Virus record (IMG/VR): IMGVR_UViG_3300021958_011004
Location: 8,275 to 72,274 of that record
DNA length: 64,000 bases
Strand: one strand, 5' to 3'
From: a virus
Lineage: Duplodnaviria > Caudoviricetes
Part shown: positions 5,757-62,182 of the stretch, in pieces
Layout of the letters: the number at the start of each line of letters is the position of its first letter
Position numbering within the stretch: position 1 is the first letter of the stretch
Program-made: the position numbers and the translations under genes
Notes under the pieces: model-generated
The model's input: the letters and a program-made list of their open reading frames with translations, nothing else
Databases searched by the model: none
Told to the model about the DNA's origin: nothing

Positions 5757-6059
5757 TTATACTCCGTCACAATCATCATTGTCATCATTATCATTACTGC
5801 TGTTATAGGGACTAAATAAGTCAGGGTCATCTGTTTTGTCATCATCAAACCAACCCCACATATCATCCTCTACTTGGTCATTATACGCATCTGCAAGTCT
5901 TTTTACAAATTCATAACCTGACATTTTATCCATTTGTATTTCAGTGTTGCCATAATCGTTAATAATTCTAAACTTGTCACCGTCTCTTTCAAGGTGAAAT
6001 ACTTCTGAAGAACCATTGCCATTATTAACATTCCAACTTCTTATTCTTTTCCAAGCCAT
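5757..6059 (-). CDS. Hypothetical protein, Asp-rich tail
   Basis: ORF track. Confidence 0.5.
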   Translation of the reverse strand: MAWKRIRSWNVNNGNGSSEVFHLERDGDKFRIINDYGNTEIQMDKMSGYEFVKRLADAYNDQVEDDMWGWFDDDKTDDPDLFSPYNSSNDNDDNDDCDGV

Positions 6060-6062
6060 TGA

Positions 6063-6383
6063 CTAATCCTTAATACTTTCAAATGCTTCTTTAATTGCTT
6101 CACATTTTTTAAAGCCACTCAATCTTTTCTTTTCAATATACACACCGTCTTCTCGCTTTAAAAAGACAAGTGTAGGAACTGCTCGGATTTGAAATTCACT
6201 AGAAAGAGCATTGTAATCTTCGATGTTAACTTTAAAAACTTCAATATCAGAGTTTCTTTCGGAAAAGTTTTCTAGTTCTGGTGTCATTCTCTTACATGGC
6301 CCACACCAGCTTGCATAGAAATCAACAAGACAATAATCTTTCTTTAAGTCGTCTCTGAAATTCTCATTTAAAATGTCTTTCAT
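6063..6383 (-). CDS. trxA: Thioredoxin
   Basis: VDFYASWCGPCK; AVPTL. Confidence 0.93.
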   Translation of the reverse strand: MKDILNENFRDDLKKDYCLVDFYASWCGPCKRMTPELENFSERNSDIEVFKVNIEDYNALSSEFQIRAVPTLVFLKREDGVYIEKKRLSGFKKCEAIKEAFESIKD

Positions 6384-6386
6384 TTT

Positions 6387-6578
6387 TTATTCCTTTTTTA
6401 TTTTTTCAATGAACTCTGATGCATTGCCTTTACAAACAATGGTTCCAAAGTTGTTTGTTCTTATCTTGAATGTGTTCTTAGTGTTCTCTTGAACAAGAAT
6501 TATTTGATACACGTTGATATAATACTTTTCATTTTCTGTATTTATAACTTCAATTATTGGCAAAACTTTTGAATTCAA
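6387..6578 (-). CDS. Hypothetical protein (FlbD/LytTR-like beta-rich microprotein)
   Basis: YYINVYQIILVQE pattern only. Confidence 0.4.
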   Translation of the reverse strand: MNSKVLPIIEVINTENEKYYINVYQIILVQENTKNTFKIRTNNFGTIVCKGNASEFIEKIKKE

Positions 6579-6580
6579 AA

Positions 6581-6856
6581 CTATTCTCCTATTTCTTGCA
6601 AAACTTCAAAATCATTTGACGCAACATCAGAAACAAAATAAACATCTCTTACTCCTCCTACTGTTGCTTTTATTGAATAATGAAATTGATTATACTCAGT
6701 ATCTTTTAACAAATTACATTCATCAACAAAAATCAAATCTTGAGGAAATAAAATTATCTTTTCAATAGAATCATATTGAGGATTATTGGGATTTTCAATA
6801 ATCTTTGTTCCTGTAATTTCATTACAAGCTTTTAAGATTTGTCCCTGTTTAATCAT
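6581..6856 (-). CDS. Hypothetical protein
   Basis: GGAG RBS, promoter upstream. Confidence 0.55.
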   Translation of the reverse strand: MIKQGQILKACNEITGTKIIENPNNPQYDSIEKIILFPQDLIFVDECNLLKDTEYNQFHYSIKATVGGVRDVYFVSDVASNDFEVLQEIGE

Positions 6857-6896
6857 TGTTTCTCCAACATAAAAGGATTTTATTTGTCATGTATAT

Positions 6897-6925
6897 ATTA
6901 TACAAAAAAGGCGTGCAATTTGCAC
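6897..6925 (-). promoter_or_regulatory. Promoter GTGCAA-N17-TATAAT overlapping a terminator hairpin
   Basis: Class consensus. Confidence 0.6.
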
Positions 6926-6930
6926 GCCTT
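6904..6930 (-). terminator. Intrinsic terminator
   Basis: AAGGCGTGCAA-A-TTGCACGCCTT followed by T run on minus strand. Confidence 0.75.
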
Positions 6931-6956
6931 AATAAAACAACTTAAAAAACTAGAGA

Positions 6957-7184
6957 CTAATCGTCAGTAGTTTCTGTAGTGGTTTCTTCAGTTTCGGTAG
7001 TTGTAGTAGCTGCCTGAGTCTCAACAGTTGTTTCAGTTGATGTAGTCGTTACGGTTTCGTCAACTGTTCCGTGTGTATGAGTTTCTTCTGCTACTGTTTG
7101 TGTTTCTGTAGTTGTTTCTTCTGTAGTTGCAACTTCAGTCTCTGCTGGGCACGCAAAGAATAACAATGATAGTGCTAAAATCAT
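6957..7184 (-). CDS. Thr/Glu-rich small lipoprotein
   Basis: MILALSLLFFAC then low-complexity T/E tail. Confidence 0.65.
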   Translation of the reverse strand: MILALSLLFFACPAETEVATTEETTTETQTVAEETHTHGTVDETVTTTSTETTVETQAATTTTETEETTTETTDD

Positions 7185-7435
7185 TATTCACCACCTGTGT
7201 CTTCTTGACCAGTTTCTTCAGCAGAGCCAGTGTCTTCTGGTTCAGACCCAGTATCTACTGGTTCGGGTTCAACACCCGTGTCTTCTGGCTCATCTGCTGG
7301 TTCTTCAGCAGTGTCTGCAGCTTCCGCTGTATCAAGTTCTTCACAATCACATGACTCTTCCTTGTCGCCACATGCTGTCAAGGTTAATAATGATAATGCA
7401 CCGCCCAATGCAAGTGCTTCAATTAATGTGCGCAT
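7184..7435 (-). CDS. Acidic lipoprotein with DTG repeats
   Basis: LTLTACGD lipobox; repeated (E/V)DTG units. Confidence 0.7.
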   Translation of the reverse strand: MRTLIEALALGGALSLLTLTACGDKEESCDCEELDTAEAADTAEEPADEPEDTGVEPEPVDTGSEPEDTGSAEETGQEDTGGE

Positions 7436-7467
7436 AATCGTCTCCTTTTTTTGTATTACGCTTTCAC

Positions 7468-7491
7468 AAAAAACGCCTCTTTTAAAGGCGT
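7468..7491 (-). terminator. Possible intrinsic terminator
   Basis: ACGCCT...AGGCGT hairpin with T run on minus strand; sits downstream of a promoter so could be attenuator-like. Confidence 0.45.
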
Positions 7492-7496
7492 CTTAT

Positions 7497-7525
7497 AATA
7501 TAACAAATTTCTGTTTTGTTTACAA
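7497..7525 (-). promoter_or_regulatory. Promoter TTGTAA-N17-TATATT
   Basis: Class consensus with TG extension. Confidence 0.55.
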
Positions 7526-7527
7526 AA

Positions 7528-8493
7528 CTATGATTGTTTTTTCTCATCTTTAAGTTTTGTTGGAGTTTCAGGAACAATAAAACCACTTTCTTCTTTTAAC
7601 CCAGTAACATAATAGTTATTAAATCCCGGTCCGTCTATCTCTAATCTTCCGTTTCTCCAAGCAGCACTTGTTTTGTCGCTCAGATTTGTATTCGTAAGAT
7701 TAATTGCAAGAACACTTAAACCACTTCCCTTGGGAGGGTCAGGATATTTTCGAGTTGTAACCCTAATACCACGCAAAGCTTTTGCATCTTCAACTAGTTT
7801 TGATATATCAACTGTATCTGCTGCCATTATTGCTGCCTGATTTGAATCAAGTCTGTCAACGGGTATTGAAAGTAAATTGACATGATTTTGAAATGGTGGA
7901 TCAAAGACACCAGGTTTAACAGAAAGCTTTATTCCTCCCACACCGGGCAAATAATAAACTGCTTCTTTTTCTGAAGCTTCAGATCCACCTTTAGGTTCTG
8001 CTTTTTTAGCAGGTTCTTTTACTTTTGAACCCATAGCAACACCAGAAGCCTGAACCATTGATGCTAAGAAATCTTTAAATTCAGCCGCTTTTGATTCATC
8101 TTTCCCACTAACAAGTTTTTCTTTTGCCTTTCCTTTAGCATCAACCTGATTAGGGTAGTTACTGAAATAAACTGCACGCATATCAGCAAGTAGTTTTCCG
8201 ACACCTTTGCCCACACTAGAATCACTAGCTTTCACAGAAAAAGATTTGTTAAAAGGTTTGCCGTTCTTTGTGGGAACATCAACCTTGAGCTCGGTCATTC
8301 CTTCATCAGAGAATTTCATTGAATCCCAGTTGACTTTATATGTATAAGGATCTTCTTTGGCTCTCCTTTCCATTGCTGCAAAAGTATCGTTTTTTTCATC
8401 ATAGTCATAGTATTCAGTTTTAAAATCACCTACAGCCTCAACAATTAAAACTGATCTAATAATTTTTCTTAATTGAGACTCTGTTAGTTTCAT
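7528..8493 (-). CDS. Hypothetical protein with MKxxxxQLR leader
   Basis: MKLTESQLRKIIRSVLIVEA. Confidence 0.65.
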   Translation of the reverse strand: MKLTESQLRKIIRSVLIVEAVGDFKTEYYDYDEKNDTFAAMERRAKEDPYTYKVNWDSMKFSDEGMTELKVDVPTKNGKPFNKSFSVKASDSSVGKGVGKLLADMRAVYFSNYPNQVDAKGKAKEKLVSGKDESKAAEFKDFLASMVQASGVAMGSKVKEPAKKAEPKGGSEASEKEAVYYLPGVGGIKLSVKPGVFDPPFQNHVNLLSIPVDRLDSNQAAIMAADTVDISKLVEDAKALRGIRVTTRKYPDPPKGSGLSVLAINLTNTNLSDKTSAAWRNGRLEIDGPGFNNYYVTGLKEESGFIVPETPTKLKDEKKQS

Positions 8494-8537
8494 CTTCTTC
8501 TCCGTTACTTTTTAATATATATTACTCAAAAAGTTGA

Positions 8538-9716
8538 TTAGTCTTCTCGATATCTAACCCAAAGTAGAAAAGCAAGAAACATTAAAGAAAACCATCCTGG
8601 GTTGTCTGATACAACATTACAACCCTTGACAGGCTCAGTTATTTCATTATCAAGCTCGGGTAACTCTTCGTCTTCTTGTTCTTCAGCAACGACAACAGTT
8701 GCTGTGTCTTCTTCGGGATACCATCCAGTATCCACAGGCTCTTCAGCGGGTTCAATAGCAGGCTCAGAAGCGGGTTCTTCAACTACAGGCTCTTCAAAGT
8801 CAGGAGGAGGCATAATTTGAACATTTCCCAAGGAAAGCCCAAGATCGTAGTGAATAGGGTTCCACCAACCAAGATCAAAGTTAGCCGCAATGTTAAAGAA
8901 ATCAATCGTAAAAGTCTGACCCTCTTCAACTTGGATTGCCAAAAAGTATTCATGATACGCGTTCTGATCATCTCTCACCCCTGTGTTTAAATACATATCC
9001 CATGCCATCACATCAGCGCGACCATCAACCTCTACGTCCCACTCATATAATGTAACCTCATACTGTGTCTGAACGCGATATTCAGATCCTACATATCCCT
9101 TTACCTGCACGTCGCCTGCTGCCTGCATTGTACCTTCATCATCAAGTTGATACTCACCATGCGCCATGGCAGAACCTTCAGTGTTACCTCCAATCCCATA
9201 TTGATTTGAGAATAGAACTTGCCCATAAGCATCAATACCATAACTCTCAAAAGGAACAGACCAATCCCATCTAAATGCGCCGTTTGGATTGGCAACATCC
9301 TTAAGAGCTTCAACTGAAAGTGCGGGATACTCACCCCAGTCTTGGAACTCATCGGCCCACAAATGACAATCAAAACCGCTCACCCAAGGTGCAGCATAAC
9401 AATTGTCTCCAGGATTTGAACGTGCTTTAATTACTGCAACATAAAAGTCTGAACCTCTGTCAATTGAAGATTCAAACCAAAAGAACTCAATGATAGCATC
9501 AATTGAATTACCATAATCATCCGAGTTACCAGCATAAAGCGTATTACCTTCAAAAAACGCATATGGGTTTGTGGTTGCGTCTCCATTGGAATCATAAACT
9601 AAATCTAGAAGGACTTCGTTGTCACCTTCTAAAATCTGAGCACCGTTATATGAGGTCTCAGAGGTTGAGATGTCATCCGCATATAATAGCGAAGACATTA
9701 ATAAAGTTGTTAACAT
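8538..9716 (-). CDS. Secreted surface protein with MYXO-CTERM-like sorting tail
   Basis: Signal peptide; EEPASEP/DTG linker; C-terminal KGC...GWFSLMFLAFLLWVRYRED. Confidence 0.7.
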   Translation of the reverse strand: MLTTLLMSSLLYADDISTSETSYNGAQILEGDNEVLLDLVYDSNGDATTNPYAFFEGNTLYAGNSDDYGNSIDAIIEFFWFESSIDRGSDFYVAVIKARSNPGDNCYAAPWVSGFDCHLWADEFQDWGEYPALSVEALKDVANPNGAFRWDWSVPFESYGIDAYGQVLFSNQYGIGGNTEGSAMAHGEYQLDDEGTMQAAGDVQVKGYVGSEYRVQTQYEVTLYEWDVEVDGRADVMAWDMYLNTGVRDDQNAYHEYFLAIQVEEGQTFTIDFFNIAANFDLGWWNPIHYDLGLSLGNVQIMPPPDFEEPVVEEPASEPAIEPAEEPVDTGWYPEEDTATVVVAEEQEDEELPELDNEITEPVKGCNVVSDNPGWFSLMFLAFLLWVRYRED

Positions 9717-9743
9717 TTAATCTCCGTTTGCAAAAACAGTTAT

Positions 9744-9772
9744 ATTATACCAAAAACAATTATAATTTGCAG
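9744..9772 (-). promoter_or_regulatory. Promoter CTGCAA-N17-TATAAT
   Basis: Class consensus with TG extension. Confidence 0.7.
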
Positions 9773-9789
9773 GTTTTGTGCAAAAACAG

Positions 9790-10260
9790 TTATTCTTCTG
9801 TAACCTCTACTGTTTCTTCTTCTTGTCTTTGTAGTTTTTCTCTTAGCTTTTTTTCTTCTTCGGGCAAACAATCTTCGGGAAGCATTGATCTTAACTTCTT
9901 TTTATACTCAATCATTTCAGGTTGTGTCCACTTTTTCTTTGGACAGAACTTTTCATAATCTTCTTGATCTTTAAGAAAAATTTCCAATGCTACCATGTTA
10001 TTTTTTAAGTCTTCTGTTTTTTCGTCCATTGTTTCTATTTGCGTTTCTGTAGCGGCAAGAGTTTCAATAATTTCTTCTTTAAGATCTTCAGCTGCATTCT
10101 CGGACAATGGGGTGGGTGAAGGAGGAGGTTCTGGATTTTCTTCTTCTATTATTTCAGATTCATCCTCCAAAAATGTAGGTGGATCATCACTACCTTCATC
10201 TGCAGATACTTCAGCAGCACATGAAGTAAACAAAAGAATAAAAAGACCTGTGGTCATCAT
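9790..10260 (-). CDS. Acidic coiled-coil lipoprotein
   Basis: LFILLFTSC lipobox. Confidence 0.6.
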   Translation of the reverse strand: MMTTGLFILLFTSCAAEVSADEGSDDPPTFLEDESEIIEEENPEPPPSPTPLSENAAEDLKEEIIETLAATETQIETMDEKTEDLKNNMVALEIFLKDQEDYEKFCPKKKWTQPEMIEYKKKLRSMLPEDCLPEEEKKLREKLQRQEEETVEVTEE

Positions 10261-10535
10261 CGATCTCTCCGTGTAATAAGGTCTTCAATACGACCCAAGG
10301 TTGTTTTCATATATTCAATATCTTTTTCAATACTAATAATTCTCTTACCGTTTTCATCTAAGTCTTCAAATTTCTTTTCATATTGTGTGATAACTTGTTC
10401 AGCATCGCCCAAATCGTTTTGAAGCTCAGCTACTTTTACATTTGTAGTCCAAACCCAACCCGCAAGCGGAAGAACCAAAGCAGACATGATAAGAGAAAAA
10501 ACTTTCCATAAATCGTCTTTTGTTACACTAGCCAT
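10257..10535 (-). CDS. Membrane-anchored coiled-coil protein
   Basis: One N-terminal TM helix then heptad region. Confidence 0.55.
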   Translation of the reverse strand: MASVTKDDLWKVFSLIMSALVLPLAGWVWTTNVKVAELQNDLGDAEQVITQYEKKFEDLDENGKRIISIEKDIEYMKTTLGRIEDLITRRDR

Positions 10536-57199: not shown

Positions 57200-58258
57200 C
57201 TACACAACAAGTGGACGAATCTTTCTAGAACTAGTGCTTGGACCCCAGTTTTTATCTGCTGAAACTTCGGCAAGCCAAATTGTAAACTTTTCCATTCCAT
57301 CAGGTAGTTCACCCCAAACACGCAACCAACCTGAATTACTTTCATTGTCAACAATTTTGATACGATAGAATATCTTTTTATTTCTTGTCGTTTTTCTAAT
57401 AAAGTCAACAGCACAAAACCATGCAATTTGTTTAGCACCGGGAGCTAATTGTAAAACAGATTTAACATTAGAATTTCTAATCTTTTGCATCAAACCTGAA
57501 GGAAAGGCAATGTCATCACGAATTGTTGAACATAACTCTTGATACATTTCAAGTTTATCAACACGAGACCAATCATCAATATCTTTTGACTCATCAATCA
57601 AAACAGGCAAGATTAAAGGAGCACCTTCTTTCTTTGCTTTTCTTTCAGACATTCCATAATGACCTTTTCGCAATGTGTTGTAATTACCCACAATAATCTC
57701 ATATGCCTGTTTGTGATTTCGAATAGAACCATCAATAAACTCATCAAGTGAATCCAAAGCCTCAATCTTACAAAGAGAAGTGAATCCAGTCTTGTTAAGT
57801 TTTGAATGTTTCCATTTACCACCTTCATCAAATAACAAATCTGACATTGCTTTATAGGGTCTATATTGAACAATTTCTTCAACAGCCTTGTCACCTAAAC
57901 CCTTAATTGAAGTTAAAGGCGGCACAAAAGCATTACGCTTTTCCGACCATGACCATTCGTAACCAGAATAGTTGATATCAGGTGGGGCAATATCGTAGTC
58001 CATTGCTTTGATTTCTGAAATAGCTTTTGTTAGAGCTTTTGGGTTATTGTTTTCTGATTGTAGAACTGTGGCTAACCAGTCTGTTTCGTAATAGGTGTGC
58101 AACCAAGCTGCATAATAAGAATCAATAGCATAAGCAACAGCATGGGAATTTGATGATAACATCCCATTTGACAAAAAGTATTGATGATCTTTATGTTCGA
58201 CTTCTAAGTCATAAGTTTCTTGCATTCCTTTAAATTCTATGCTTTTGATTTTTGGCAT
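57200..58258 (-). CDS. dnaE: DNA polymerase III alpha, C-terminal part (IntC + C-extein)
   Basis: 37-aa IntC ending SSN then SHAVAYA; HhH IKGLGDKAVEEI; OB-fold tail; AGGAG RBS. Confidence 0.92.
   Translation of the reverse strand: MPKIKSIEFKGMQETYDLEVEHKDHQYFLSNGMLSSNSHAVAYAIDSYYAAWLHTYYETDWLATVLQSENNNPKALTKAISEIKAMDYDIAPPDINYSGYEWSWSEKRNAFVPPLTSIKGLGDKAVEEIVQYRPYKAMSDLLFDEGGKWKHSKLNKTGFTSLCKIEALDSLDEFIDGSIRNHKQAYEIIVGNYNTLRKGHYGMSERKAKKEGAPLILPVLIDESKDIDDWSRVDKLEMYQELCSTIRDDIAFPSGLMQKIRNSNVKSVLQLAPGAKQIAWFCAVDFIRKTTRNKKIFYRIKIVDNESNSGWLRVWGELPDGMEKFTIWLAEVSADKNWGPSTSSRKIRPLVV
58148..58258 (-). mobile_element. Split intein C-fragment (37 aa)
   Basis: MPKIKSIEFKGMQETYDLEVEHKDHQYFLSNGMLSSN; block F D, terminal Asn, +1 Ser. 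Confidence 0.9.
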
Positions 58259-58281
58259 TGATTCTCCTAGTTTTATTTTAT

Positions 58282-58310
58282 ATTATACAGTCTAATCTTT
58301 GTTATTGCAT
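58282..58310 (-). promoter_or_regulatory. Promoter ATGCAA-N17-TATAAT for dnaE-C
   Basis: Class consensus; -35 lies in last codons of endonuclease gene. Confidence 0.7.
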
Positions 58311-59281
58311 GTGTAAGAAGTGCCTATTAAAAACAAACCTCTTTCTTTGTTGTCAATTAAATTGAATATTCTTTTTATTGAATCTTCACTAAACACCCCA
58401 CCTGAATTATAAGAATATTGATCATGAGCAACACGAATAACTGTCCAGCCCTCATCTACCATGACAAAATTTAATTCATTATCTTTTTTAATATTCTTTT
58501 TTAATGCTTCAACACCATGAATGTTATTAAAGTGATGAACACCGTCAAACTCAACAATTATTTTATTTTCAAGCGACATGATGTCTATTTGTCTTTTTCC
58601 TGACTTTGTTGTCTTAAATTTGTTAACACGTCGTAACTGTTGATTTCTTTTAAAAAAAGAATACTTTTTATTTAAGATTTCAAATAATTGTGTTTCTGGT
58701 TTTGATTTCCAAGAGTTAATCATTACACTTGTGCATTTGTTGTAAAACTCTTCAGGATTGTTTTCTCTCCACTCTTTTAATTGTCTTGAGCGTTTTTCTA
58801 AAATTTCTTTTCTGGCTGAAGTCTGCTTGGCAGTCTTTGAAGATTTCTCTCTAAACTCTTTTGTCTTGTTTAATCTGGTTAAGTTTTCTCTTCTTGCTGC
58901 TCTAGCACTCTCTGAGTTCATTATTCCTTCTGAAGTTTTTTTACCTAATTTTTCTCGCCACTCTTTTAAATCATTGCCCTTTTCTTTTTCTCTTTTTATC
59001 CAGTCGTAGTTTTGTGTTTCAGAATATCTTTTTTTTGAAGATTGACAAATTGTCGGACCAAATTTTTTCTCATATTCAGACTTTGAAATATTGTGTGATT
59101 TAATATGTGATGTAATTGACTTACCAATCACACCACACACTTTACATTCAACATAATCAATATTTTCAATAGCGCTTTCTTTCCACTTTAAACACTTCTT
59201 TTGATGATTTGTTAAGCTGCTTCTTCTTTCATACTTTCGGCCACAGCTACAATCGAAAGATCTTCTTGTAATATCACCCAT
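58292..59281 (-). CDS. Free-standing Vsr/DUF559-like homing endonuclease
   Basis: N-terminal Zn fingers; SKPE, IDI....KIIVEFDGVHHF, D..LN...GWTVIRV; GGAGG RBS within dnaE-N. Confidence 0.85.
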   Translation of the reverse strand: MGDITRRSFDCSCGRKYERRSSLTNHQKKCLKWKESAIENIDYVECKVCGVIGKSITSHIKSHNISKSEYEKKFGPTICQSSKKRYSETQNYDWIKREKEKGNDLKEWREKLGKKTSEGIMNSESARAARRENLTRLNKTKEFREKSSKTAKQTSARKEILEKRSRQLKEWRENNPEEFYNKCTSVMINSWKSKPETQLFEILNKKYSFFKRNQQLRRVNKFKTTKSGKRQIDIMSLENKIIVEFDGVHHFNNIHGVEALKKNIKKDNELNFVMVDEGWTVIRVAHDQYSYNSGGVFSEDSIKRIFNLIDNKERGLFLIGTSYTCNNKD

Positions 59282-59541
59282 AACGGTAGCATCCTCCCAT
59301 CTTCTACTCTAAATTTGTGATGCATGGTACATGTTACCGACTGACCGTCATCTAATGTAATCTCAAAAGTTGGAATCTTACCATGATAATGATTTGACAT
59401 TACCTTTGTATAGATTTCTTCTTTTGTTTCTTCATCACGAGAACGAACATAAGAACCAGGAATTACATTTTGAATCTGTTCAGTGCAAATAAAATCACCC
59501 TGCTTATTATATATATCGACCTCAGTATCAAATGTACAGGA
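59212..59541 (-). mobile_element. Split intein N-fragment (109 aa, starts with Ser)
   Basis: SCTFDTEV (block A), VTCTMHHKF (block B TxxH), LPL. Confidence 0.88.
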
Positions 59542-62121
59542 TTTATTAAACCCGTATGCAGAAAAGAATTCAATTCTTTCCCACAACTCAGTGCTCACAC
59601 TTTCAGGAACACCGTTTAGTTCTTTTGCACCTTGAATGAACTTACGTCTAGCCACAGCCCGTTCACCCTCTTTAGCATCATTTGCATCCAAAGATTTCTT
59701 AACCAAAGTCTTTCTAAGTTTATCAGACTCACCTGGTGAGAATCCAGAAAGCTTCTGTGCCAAAAGCATGAACTGTTCTTGGAATGTAACGTGACCAAAT
59801 GTTGGGCCTAAGATTTCTTCAATCACAGGATGCGGATATTTAACATTTGATGAATCCGCTTTGTCCTTGATATACTTTTTATGTACGTTGGCTCGTAATG
59901 GTCCAGGGCGGTATATCGCTGTAATAGCACCTAATTCTTCAATGTTTGTTGGTTTTGCATCCTCACAGAAGTTTCGAGCACCTTCCGCAGTGAATTGAAA
60001 GATACCAACCTTTCGCCTTTGATGATATACATGTTGCCAGACTTCTTGATCACTTTGTTCAATGTATCGACAATTAAGATGCTCATCAAAGAAAGCACGA
60101 ACATCAGAGAAAGGTATTTCTTCAATTGCACAATTCAGGGCTTTCTTTTTTCTAATAATACGTCTAATGCAGTTTTCAACATCTTTCATTAGCGTCAAAC
60201 CTAAGAAGTCAAACTTAACAAAACCATTATCTTCAAGATTTCTAAAGTTCATACCTTCAGACCATGGTGTTTGTAGGTCACCCCTAACACCAATAATTGG
60301 CATTGATTGTTCCAAGACATCAGGAGGACCAATAATAACACCGCCAGCATGACGACCAATAGAACGATTTTGCATAAATAGAGCTTCAATGTGTTCTTTT
60401 ACTTTGGGATACTTTTCCATGAATTCACGATAAGTCTTGGAATGTTCCATACAATCTTCATGTTTCAGAACAAAGACAGACTTTTCTGTGTTTTCATCAC
60501 GAGCAAGAGACATTACTTCATCTTGCAATGGGCCAGTCATTTTATTAACTTCAGCAAAGTCAACACCGTAAAACTTAGCAATATCTTTAACTAGTGACTT
60601 AAGCTTAAGTGTATTAAAGTTGGAAACTGGAATAACAGCATGGTCACCGAATAATTCACGTGCAGCATTAATCAATGCATCACGGTCACCGGCATCAGAA
60701 TCAATATCGGGAAACCCGGTACGATGACGACCTAGGAATCTTTCCCACAGCAAATTGTATTTCAGCGGGTCCATTTGTGTAATCCCTAACAAGAAATTAA
60801 CCAAACTTCCCCCTCCACTTCCGCGAGCAGCGCCGAATAAGGTGTGGTCAGCAGCCTTGTGGAAAACCTCGTACATTACAAGGAAATAGTTTTCAAAACC
60901 AAGATACTTAATATCTGATAATTCATGCTTAGCACGTTCAACATATTCAGGCTTTGTATGATAACCTTCACGAACAAGTGCTTCTTTTACCTTGTCTGCT
61001 AATTGCTCAAAGGCTGTTTTTTCCTTTGTGTTGTAATCTGGTAGTTTAACCTTAGTGTCAATCCAGCAGTCTTCATATTTATCCCACACAAGGTCGTGTG
61101 TTCTTTCAATTGAATCTTTTACAGCTTGTTCATAACCTTCATAAGAATCTTTGTATTCATCATAGTGACGTGTGAATTCACCCCACATCTGTTCAGCATT
61201 CTTAGGATACAATTCACACTTAAGTTCATCAAAATCAGGCAAAGGAGACGGATCATTACCCATCCAGCCAAGCTTCTTGTATAATTCACGTGCTTCCCAC
61301 TTGTCAGGAGAATAGTAGTGTGAATCTGCTGTTGAAATAAGCTTGATTCCTGTTTGGTCAGCATGACGTAACAAGTGATGATTTACAAGATGTTGTTGCT
61401 TAAGCCGATTAAATTGCAATTCCAAGAAGAAATTTTCTTCACCAACAGCATCAACAAACTTATCTGTTAAGTTGTGAAGCTCACGCTGAATATCTTCATC
61501 AGAGAGTTTAAGAGCATTACCACGCATAATTCTGTTTGAATACACACCGCCTAAACATGCAGTTGAAACTGTTAAGCCTTCATTATAACGCTTAAGCAAG
61601 TCAAAATCAATACGTGGATATCGATAAAAACCTTCTGTATAAGCACGTTTAATTAGCGTAAACAGATTTGCCAGACCAATCCTGTTTTGCGCTGTTATAA
61701 CCAAGTGGTAACGACGCTTCCATTCGTTTGTGTCCAAAGTGAAAGTTTTAGTTTCATCTTCGTTTTCAATTACGTGACCGCCTTCTTCATCTTCTTTAAT
61801 AGCAGCTTGCTTGTTTTTCTTTCTTGCTTCTTTTGCTGCTTCATAATCTTTCTTCCATTGTGAAAGTGAAGGTACAAAATAGAATTCACAGCCGTAGACT
61901 TGACGATATTTCTTGCCCGACTTTTTAACCTTTTCAGAATATTTCCTTGCGTGTGCCAGACCAGAACCATTTCCGTGGTCTGTGATTGCCCAAGCATCCA
62001 TTCCGTTTTCTAAAACAAAGTCAATATGATTTGATGGGTAACCTAATCCGTCAAAAACACTGAATCCTGTGTGGCAGTGCAACCCAACAAAGCGTGTAGG
62101 TGGTGGTAGTAAAACGCTCAT
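59212..62121 (-). CDS. dnaE: DNA polymerase III alpha, N-terminal part (PHP + Pol + IntN)
   Basis: LHCHT.FS, ITDHG, TADSHY, RGSGGGS, PDIDSD, KFDFLGL, YGFNK then intein. Confidence 0.95.
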   Translation of the reverse strand: MSVLLPPPTRFVGLHCHTGFSVFDGLGYPSNHIDFVLENGMDAWAITDHGNGSGLAHARKYSEKVKKSGKKYRQVYGCEFYFVPSLSQWKKDYEAAKEARKKNKQAAIKEDEEGGHVIENEDETKTFTLDTNEWKRRYHLVITAQNRIGLANLFTLIKRAYTEGFYRYPRIDFDLLKRYNEGLTVSTACLGGVYSNRIMRGNALKLSDEDIQRELHNLTDKFVDAVGEENFFLELQFNRLKQQHLVNHHLLRHADQTGIKLISTADSHYYSPDKWEARELYKKLGWMGNDPSPLPDFDELKCELYPKNAEQMWGEFTRHYDEYKDSYEGYEQAVKDSIERTHDLVWDKYEDCWIDTKVKLPDYNTKEKTAFEQLADKVKEALVREGYHTKPEYVERAKHELSDIKYLGFENYFLVMYEVFHKAADHTLFGAARGSGGGSLVNFLLGITQMDPLKYNLLWERFLGRHRTGFPDIDSDAGDRDALINAARELFGDHAVIPVSNFNTLKLKSLVKDIAKFYGVDFAEVNKMTGPLQDEVMSLARDENTEKSVFVLKHEDCMEHSKTYREFMEKYPKVKEHIEALFMQNRSIGRHAGGVIIGPPDVLEQSMPIIGVRGDLQTPWSEGMNFRNLEDNGFVKFDFLGLTLMKDVENCIRRIIRKKKALNCAIEEIPFSDVRAFFDEHLNCRYIEQSDQEVWQHVYHQRRKVGIFQFTAEGARNFCEDAKPTNIEELGAITAIYRPGPLRANVHKKYIKDKADSSNVKYPHPVIEEILGPTFGHVTFQEQFMLLAQKLSGFSPGESDKLRKTLVKKSLDANDAKEGERAVARRKFIQGAKELNGVPESVSTELWERIEFFSAYGFNKSCTFDTEVDIYNKQGDFICTEQIQNVIPGSYVRSRDEETKEEIYTKVMSNHYHGKIPTFEITLDDGQSVTCTMHHKFRVEDGRMLPLWVILQEDLSIVAVAESMKEEAA

Positions 62122-62135
62122 GTTTCTCCTTAAAT

Positions 62136-62171
62136 AAAAAATGTCCTGATTATATTATAACAACCAGGACA
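62136..62171 (-). terminator. Hairpin/terminator enclosing the dnaE -10 element
   Basis: TGTCCTG...CAGGACA followed by T run on minus strand; loop contains TATAAT. Confidence 0.5.
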
Positions 62172-62182
62172 CCAAATTACAT
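62154..62182 (-). promoter_or_regulatory. Promoter ATGTAA-N17-TATAAT for dnaE-N
   Basis: Class consensus preceded by TGTAAAAC. Confidence 0.72.

Follow-up and report, generated by a model that had tools for sequence, protein, structure and literature searches.

A fractured dnaE gene in an uncultured jumbo phage, with split-intein halves around a free-standing gene for a probable homing endonuclease

Three adjacent ORFs take the place of a single dnaE gene

We analysed a stretch of viral DNA of 64,000 nucleotides (nt), hereafter the window, which covers positions 8,275 to 72,274 of the IMG/VR record IMGVR_UViG_3300021958_011004. In the window, dnaE, the gene for the alpha subunit of DNA polymerase III (Pol III alpha), is fractured into three consecutive minus-strand open reading frames (ORFs): the N-terminal polymerase piece fused to an N-terminal intein half (DnaE-N-IntN), an endonuclease, and a C-terminal intein half fused to the rest of the polymerase (IntC-DnaE-C). 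The window comes from a fragment of an uncultured giant (jumbo) phage, since the 72-kb record is estimated to be only ~26% complete. The record has one Pol III alpha match, and no second Pol III alpha gene was seen in its 72 kb.

The dnaE-N ORF (59212-62121, minus strand) encodes 969 residues. The first 860 form the N-extein (59542..62121), which carries the PHP, Pol III alpha core and fingers regions and ends in FFSAYGFNK; the remaining 109 residues and the stop codon form IntN (59212..59541; SCTFDTEVDIY...KEEAA), with Ser1 at its start and T72-x-x-H75 as block B. SCTFDTEV can be read as block A, with Ser as its first residue. The dnaE-C ORF (57200-58258, minus strand; 352 residues) opens with MPKIKSIEFKGMQETYDLEVEHKDHQYFLSNGMLSSN, followed by SHAVAYAI. 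Its first 37 residues are IntC (58148..58258; MPKIKS...GMLSSN), with blocks F and G (YDLEVEHKDHQYF...GMLSSN), and the C-extein (57200..58147; 315 residues and the stop) starts at Ser+1 of SHAVAY and includes a helix-hairpin-helix (HhH) domain. Both exteins are colinear with uninterrupted alleles, the N-extein over residues 1-860. Pfam finds PHP (PF02811), DNA_pol3_alpha (PF07733) and DNA_pol3_finger (PF17657) in dnaE-N, and HHH_6 in dnaE-C.

The endonuclease gene (58292..59281, minus strand; 329 residues) is free-standing and in a different frame from dnaE-N. Its ATG (59281) lies inside the tail of dnaE-N, so that the two ORFs overlap by 70 nt up to the end of the dnaE-N stop (59212), as a preliminary reading made from the sequence alone (hereafter the sequence-only reading) had noted. 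A GGGAGG motif lies 11 nt upstream of this ATG. A spacer of 33 nt (58259..58291, minus strand) separates the endonuclease from dnaE-C, which has its own ATG and its own Shine-Dalgarno sequence, AGGAG, 5 nt before it. Expression of the three ORFs as a read-through or frameshift fusion was considered and rejected, because IntN is closed by a genuine stop, the endonuclease is read in a different frame, and between the endonuclease and IntC there are two in-frame stops.

RNA folding gave no significant hairpin hiding the ribosome-binding site of the endonuclease and no significant structure before dnaE-C (z-scores of 0.45 and 0.74, respectively), and promoter-like and terminator-like matches did not exceed their frequency in shuffled sequence. 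Note that a terminator-like hairpin (14-bp stem and T run; 62140-62173, minus strand) stands between the upstream gene, which is nucleoside deoxyribosyltransferase-like, and the start of dnaE-N.

Uninterrupted alleles place the junction exactly

A search of viral contigs with DnaE-N yielded 62 related loci, on which the five parts of the window locus were mapped by local tblastn. In about 50 of them dnaE is uninterrupted, and the equivalent of K860 adjoins the equivalent of the first Ser of the C-extein; in L001, for example, the junction is at 8565/8566 (79% identity). The site is empty in the closest relatives of the window DnaE, L001 and L025 (79% identity). The joined extein of 860 + 315 residues aligns end to end with these ~50 alleles. 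Because the empty alleles run straight across residue 860 into residue 1 of the C-extein, the junction K860|S (YGFNK|SHAVAY) is exact, and loss of the 109 + 37 intein residues would therefore give a scarless YGFNK-SHAVAY polymerase of 1175 residues, which bears out the junction and the extein lengths put forward in the sequence-only reading.

That reading also placed the site four residues downstream of the one used in cyanobacteria. The cyanobacterial insertion lies between Tyr and Cys of FAEY|CFNKSH, and the window insertion indeed follows the Lys, four residues downstream; the offset is directly visible in P0264 and P0307, which carry the cyanobacterial-type junction (FAEY|CLSYDT...).

Two further observations concern the residues next to the junction. 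The Lys codon at position -1 (window 59539-59544; homologous positions in L001-L032 and L064-L082) reads AAA in 10 of the 12 occupied alleles, whereas 14 of the 16 empty alleles have AAG, kinship among the alleles being ignored in these counts; the skew may be compatible with co-conversion or with target immunity. In P0070 and P0250, the DnaE with an intein at the K|S site reads Y-C-F-N-K before the junction, the Cys being at the +1 Cys position of the cyanobacterial site. This residue may be the scar of an earlier intein, or a coincidence.

DNA and protein searches of cultured phage records gave no match to the locus or to the endonuclease, and DnaE-N reached less than 30% identity at best with proteins of cultured phages.

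The intein halves belong to a large metagenomic family

All the splicing motifs are present in the window: Ser1, T72xxH75, block F, Asn37 and Ser+1. We collected 114 metagenomic intein clusters (at 90% identity), all of them DnaE fragments. Position 1 could be scored in 102, where the residue after YGFNK is Ser in 77, Thr in 12, Cys in 12 and Val in one. In the family alignments, H75 of block B is invariant; across 26 loci IntC is strongly conserved, and its C-terminus is always (T/Q/S/V)-S-N|S-H.

The window IntN opens with Ser-Cys. Position 2 alternates between Cys and Leu in near-identical inteins (SCTFN... in L067, SLLFN... in L085), and it is for this reason that Ser1, and not Cys2, is the constant residue and the probable nucleophile. 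Cys2 as a general nucleophile was rejected, given Leu2 in these inteins and the absence of any extra residue from the empty alleles. In ~12% of the family the first residue is Thr, as in P0036, P0046, P0076 and L082, which start with Thr-Leu, and L017, which starts with Thr-Cys; in some of these inteins position 2 is not Cys. As the first nucleophile of an intein, Thr would be unusual.

The halves were compared with known split inteins in the PDB and NCBIfam, a check that the sequence-only reading had itself suggested. The best PDB matches of IntN, as a single sequence, were split inteins of the Npu DnaE type (7qil, 4qfq and 2keq; E 2.7e-7), with gp41-1 far behind (E 0.02), and IntC matched the Npu DnaE IntC (E 1e-3). 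The family profile gave the same order: 5e-17 for the Npu/Cfa type, 2e-11 for Ssp and 2e-8 for gp41-1. The best NCBIfam matches were NF007079 (cyanobacterial DnaE-N; positions 809-873, that is, its C-terminal 65) and NF005616 (DnaE-C; positions 1-45), and TIGR01443 passed its cut-off (20.8 bits against 15.6). Together with the catalytic motifs, these matches substantiate the proposal that intein halves stand at the dnaE break, and they make the Npu/Ssp DnaE inteins the nearest characterised relatives.

An exhaustive HMMER search retrieved 3331 representatives at E<=1e-3, of which 424 reached E<1e-10. Many uncharacterised metagenomic inteins at the (Y/F)(G/S/A)FNK|(S/C/T) site of other DnaE lineages outscore the cyanobacterial type, so the cyanobacterial inteins, although the nearest that have been characterised, need not be the nearest of all. 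Since the Npu/Ssp inteins are the nearest characterised relatives, the window intein may cross-react with them, judging from sequence similarity. Nor is the window copy a cysteine-less split intein: IntN has C2, C19 and C71, the last nearly invariant in the family, and the catalytic positions alone are free of Cys.

Net charges flip within the family. In L080, L088 and L089, IntN carries +8 to +16 and IntC -8 to -11; in the window and L064-L068, IntN carries -8 to -11 and IntC about -2. These flips may define mutually incompatible intein pairs.

The middle ORF encodes a Vsr-like endonuclease

Pfam assigns DUF559 to the middle ORF (E 6.6e-5, above the cut-off). Its homologues fall into 41 clusters with 32-98% identity, some of which the JGI annotation labels as very-short-patch-repair endonuclease. 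In an alignment of 25 homologues, D233, E244-F-D246-G, H250-F, D267 and R283 are invariant, and D233, E244, D246, H250 and D267 follow the order of the EDxHD signature, the likeness being one of order along the sequence.

The AlphaFold model of the endonuclease (predicted local distance difference test, pLDDT, of 85) has two beta-beta-alpha modules (about residues 9-63), followed by a stretch of helices and then by an alpha/beta nuclease domain (about residues 173-323). The N-terminal modules appear zinc-finger-like from weak Ros/MucR matches and from the model, where they carry C11/C13/H26/C30 and C46/C49/H59/H63. Compared by VIA-align, the modelled nuclease domain matches Vsr (1cw0_A; Z 11.9, 135 residues aligned, root-mean-square deviation (rmsd) 3.4), I-Bth0305I (3r3p_B; Z 10.7, 96 of 98 residues, rmsd 2.6) and a DUF559 protein (3hrl_A; Z 9.7), with Z-scores well over those of the next VIA-align rows. 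As modelled, the nuclease domain has the Vsr / I-Bth0305I (EDxHD) fold, in line with the Vsr/DUF559-like, free-standing endonuclease of 329 residues that the sequence-only reading had recognised. Neither the single sequence nor a profile reached Vsr or I-Bth0305I in sequence searches of the PDB, and Foldseek with the whole model gave weak E-values only.

The cassette recurs at one dnaE site

Among the DnaE-N relatives, L017 and L035 share the five-part layout of the window. A search of viral contigs with the endonuclease alignment added 27 loci (L064-L090), all with the order N-extein, IntN, endonuclease, IntC, C-extein. With 27 independent contigs showing this layout, chance and misassembly can be dismissed as its source, and the fractured-gene architecture first read from the window alone is supported. 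In some of these loci the exteins are just 25-29% identical to those of the window, yet IntN is 46-60% and IntC 59-65% identical. The start of the endonuclease overlaps IntN in most of them (by 55-127 nt), and in about half its end overlaps the start of IntC by 8-23 nt. All the full-length endonuclease homologues found are at this single dnaE site, where at least 11 representatives have contiguous mini-inteins of 136-151 residues without an endonuclease.

In three of the 27 loci the endonuclease is damaged and the intein halves are intact: it is frameshifted in L090 (2135-3089) and truncated in L086 (5001-5663) and L089 (5001-5528). These decayed cassettes look like late stages of a homing cycle.

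Other breaks were seen in related dnaE genes. In L029 (6001-14091) the gene is broken into three pieces or more. The first (6001-8238) stops ~49 residues past extein residue 665 and is followed by a saccharopine-dehydrogenase-like gene (8427-9572), not by an endonuclease; the second (9592-10530) begins ~10 residues ahead of residue 667 and carries, at its end, a Cys1 IntN of the K|S-site family. No dnaE-C was found in the next 3.5 kb nor elsewhere on this 21.6-kb contig, which may thus combine an intein-less break with unlinked intein halves. Moreover, dnaE is an insertion hotspot in the phage group of the window: the extein alignment shows gaps of 1.1-3 kb close to residues 190, 435, 465-472, 662-667 and 788 (in L027, L034, L037, L039, L041, L044, L046-L051, L054, L066, L076, L078, L079, L085 and L088), with up to four insertions per gene (L048/L049).

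Selection and divergence of the cassette

Ratios of nonsynonymous to synonymous substitution rates (dN/dS), and dS itself, were calculated between close relatives by the Nei-Gojobori method. All parts of the cassette are under purifying selection: IntN has a dN/dS of 0.05-0.33, the endonuclease 0.10-0.35 and IntC 0.01-0.11; the values for the exteins are similar (0.03-0.24). In the two closest pairs compared, dS in the cassette is 3-5 times lower than in the flanking polymerase. Between L067 and L085 it is 0.12, 0.22 and 0.10 in the cassette and 0.58 and 0.87 in the flanking extein; between L064 and L066 it is 0.47 for IntN and 0.58 for the endonuclease against flanks of 1.93 and 2.15, the 37 codons of IntC giving a noisy 1.28. 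The low dS of the cassette suggests recent homing or horizontal spread.

Proposed mechanism and alternative explanations

The locus is very probably a fractured gene, in which a homing-endonuclease gene splits the coding sequence of a mini-intein that would act by trans-splicing and spread by homing. In the mechanism that we propose, the cassette at the codon boundary K860|S of the phage Pol III alpha gene would be mobile, and translation would yield DnaE-N-IntN, the endonuclease and IntC-DnaE-C as three proteins. The two intein halves would assemble into a HINT fold and catalyse class-1 trans-splicing through oxygen nucleophiles: an N-O shift at Ser1 would be followed by transesterification to Ser+1, the terminal Asn would then cyclise, and an O-N shift would complete the scarless polymerase. 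The endonuclease would cut the uninterrupted dnaE of co-infecting phages near the conserved site, and repair would copy the whole cassette into it.

Several points weigh against this interpretation. Splicing, of the window intein and of its family members alike, is a prediction from their residues; TIGR01445 falls just under its cut-off (21.1 against 24.5 bits); the penultimate residue of IntC is Ser, where His is usual; and both halves are net acidic (IntN -10, IntC -2), so that their net charges give no sign of the complementarity described between the halves of other split inteins. Regarding mobility, many of the dS values are near saturation, and an approximately unbiased (AU) test gave no significant conflict between the intein tree and the extein clade (p 0.21). 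The predicted status of splicing, the penultimate Ser and the net charges would suit halves that no longer splice and simply clasp the two polymerase pieces together non-covalently, and a fragmented ribonucleotide reductase is described as assembling without protein splicing (PMC3045599). However, the catalytic positions (S/T/C1, TxxH, the D/H of block F, the terminal Asn and Ser+1) are kept in more than 100 clusters and in the 26 loci. This weakens the idea of a clasp, because a pure clasp would need no conserved catalytic residues. Moreover, the alignment shows the penultimate Ser also in Npu DnaE, whose split intein splices efficiently. We therefore regard loss of splicing as very improbable. 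Hardly credible is the explanation that dnaE is simply broken, either as a pseudogene with an inserted endonuclease gene or as a contiguous intein made to look split by an assembly or frameshift error. The source is a metagenomic assembly, incomplete as noted, with no second Pol III alpha gene in sight, but both exteins have their full length and evolve under purifying selection, the same layout is present in 27 independent contigs, IntN, the endonuclease and IntC are set apart by the stops and frames described above, and dnaE-C has its own ribosome-binding site.

Whether the cassette moves is a separate question. The middle ORF could have ceased to be a homing endonuclease, by domestication or decay, leaving an immobile and vertically inherited cassette. 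Cleavage by the endonuclease is predicted from its model, some relatives have frameshifted (L090) or truncated (L086, L089) copies, and the AU test shows no tree incongruence. Against this, the window endonuclease is full length, keeps all the invariant residues and has relatives evolving under constraint; its full-length homologues are all at one dnaE site; and cassette dS is below flank dS in the closest pairs. An immobile cassette thus seems rather improbable to us. Since the AU test is not significant, the case for horizontal spread of the fractured-gene cassette rests on the dS contrast and on the pattern of presence and absence among relatives.

The locus illustrates, cleanly and in full, how the fractured-gene stage of split-intein evolution looks in a replicative polymerase. 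Among public viral contigs, its family includes empty sites, contiguous inteins, split inteins and cassettes with a decayed endonuclease, and therefore the model of split-intein origin proposed by Dassa et al. becomes testable by comparative genomics. For protein engineering, the family offers a large natural pool of Ser1/Ser+1 split inteins related to the fast Npu DnaE intein, although the window copy has the cysteines mentioned above. The window locus itself leaves knowledge of inteins and of phage replication unchanged.

Comparison with known systems

The anatomy given in the sequence-only reading is right; the novelty and orthogonality that it attached to the intein pair are overstated. 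Fractured DnaE has been known since 2009, when Dassa, London, Stoddard, Schueler-Furman and Pietrokovski (NAR 37:2560, PMC2677866) described three such loci (DnaE-1, -2 and -3) with sites unlike the cyanobacterial one, at least one of them (DnaE-2) with a Vsr-like endonuclease, and the K|S-site intein family has hundreds of metagenomic members (the 114 clusters and the 424 representatives mentioned above). A literature search found no description of the K|S-site DnaE intein family or of its use; current work on cysteine-less split inteins uses PolB inteins (PMC12707363).

The window has the traits of a fractured gene: two adjacent ORFs on the same strand colinear with intact homologues, split-intein halves, and a free-standing endonuclease ORF. 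It shares with the loci of Dassa et al., here compared through their published description, the host gene (Pol III alpha), the order on one strand (N piece-IntN, free-standing endonuclease, IntC-C piece), a Vsr-like nuclease domain in the C-terminal third of the endonuclease (positions 196-315 in the DnaE-2 model, about 173-323 in the window), insertion points off the cyanobacterial site and an origin in environmental phage-like DNA. The published loci differ in that the 3' end of the endonuclease overlaps IntC, whereas in the window the overlap is 5', with IntN (70 nt), and a 33-nt gap precedes IntC; several relatives of the window do have the 3' overlap. They also have a hairpin at the ribosome-binding site of the endonuclease, in contrast to the window, where no significant hairpin was found.

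As for the endonuclease, the EDxHD (Vsr-like) family of homing endonucleases was defined by Taylor et al. 2011 (PMC3239194), with I-Bth0305I (3r3p) as the prototype. Both enzymes share the nuclease fold, the order of Asp, Glu and His residues, and a DNA-binding N-terminal region before the C-terminal nuclease, that of the window being putative. I-Bth0305I is encoded by an intron in recA and has NUMOD/HTH-like repeats, whereas the window endonuclease is free-standing in an intein gene and has two zinc-finger-like modules. The characterised fractured-gene inteins gp41-1, NrdJ-1 and IMPDH-1 represent the same kind of cassette, and gp41-1 also has Ser+1, but they reside in other host genes, are distant in sequence (E 0.02 for a single sequence), and gp41-1 has Cys1.

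Finally, the cyanobacterial DnaE split inteins of Ssp and Npu (1zd7, 4qfq and 4kl5; NF007079 and NF005616) are the best solved or curated match to both halves, which are homologous to them in sequence. The host protein, the YGFNKSH motif, the split point of the HINT fold and the Ser-Asn end are all shared. They differ from the window in the site (Y|C against K|S), in the nucleophiles (Cys1 and Cys+1 against Ser1 and Ser+1) and in gene arrangement, being encoded by unlinked genes, whereas the window has adjacent genes with an endonuclease and a phage host. It is possible, though unlikely, that the K|S phage cassette and the split DnaE intein of cyanobacteria go back to a recent common ancestor; the split gene of cyanobacteria would then have arisen from a phage-type fractured dnaE through a four-codon shift of site, loss of the endonuclease and unlinking. 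If so, the phage family would keep all the stages of the birth of a split intein: empty, contiguous mini-intein, endonuclease-split, decayed endonuclease and, possibly, unlinked (L029).

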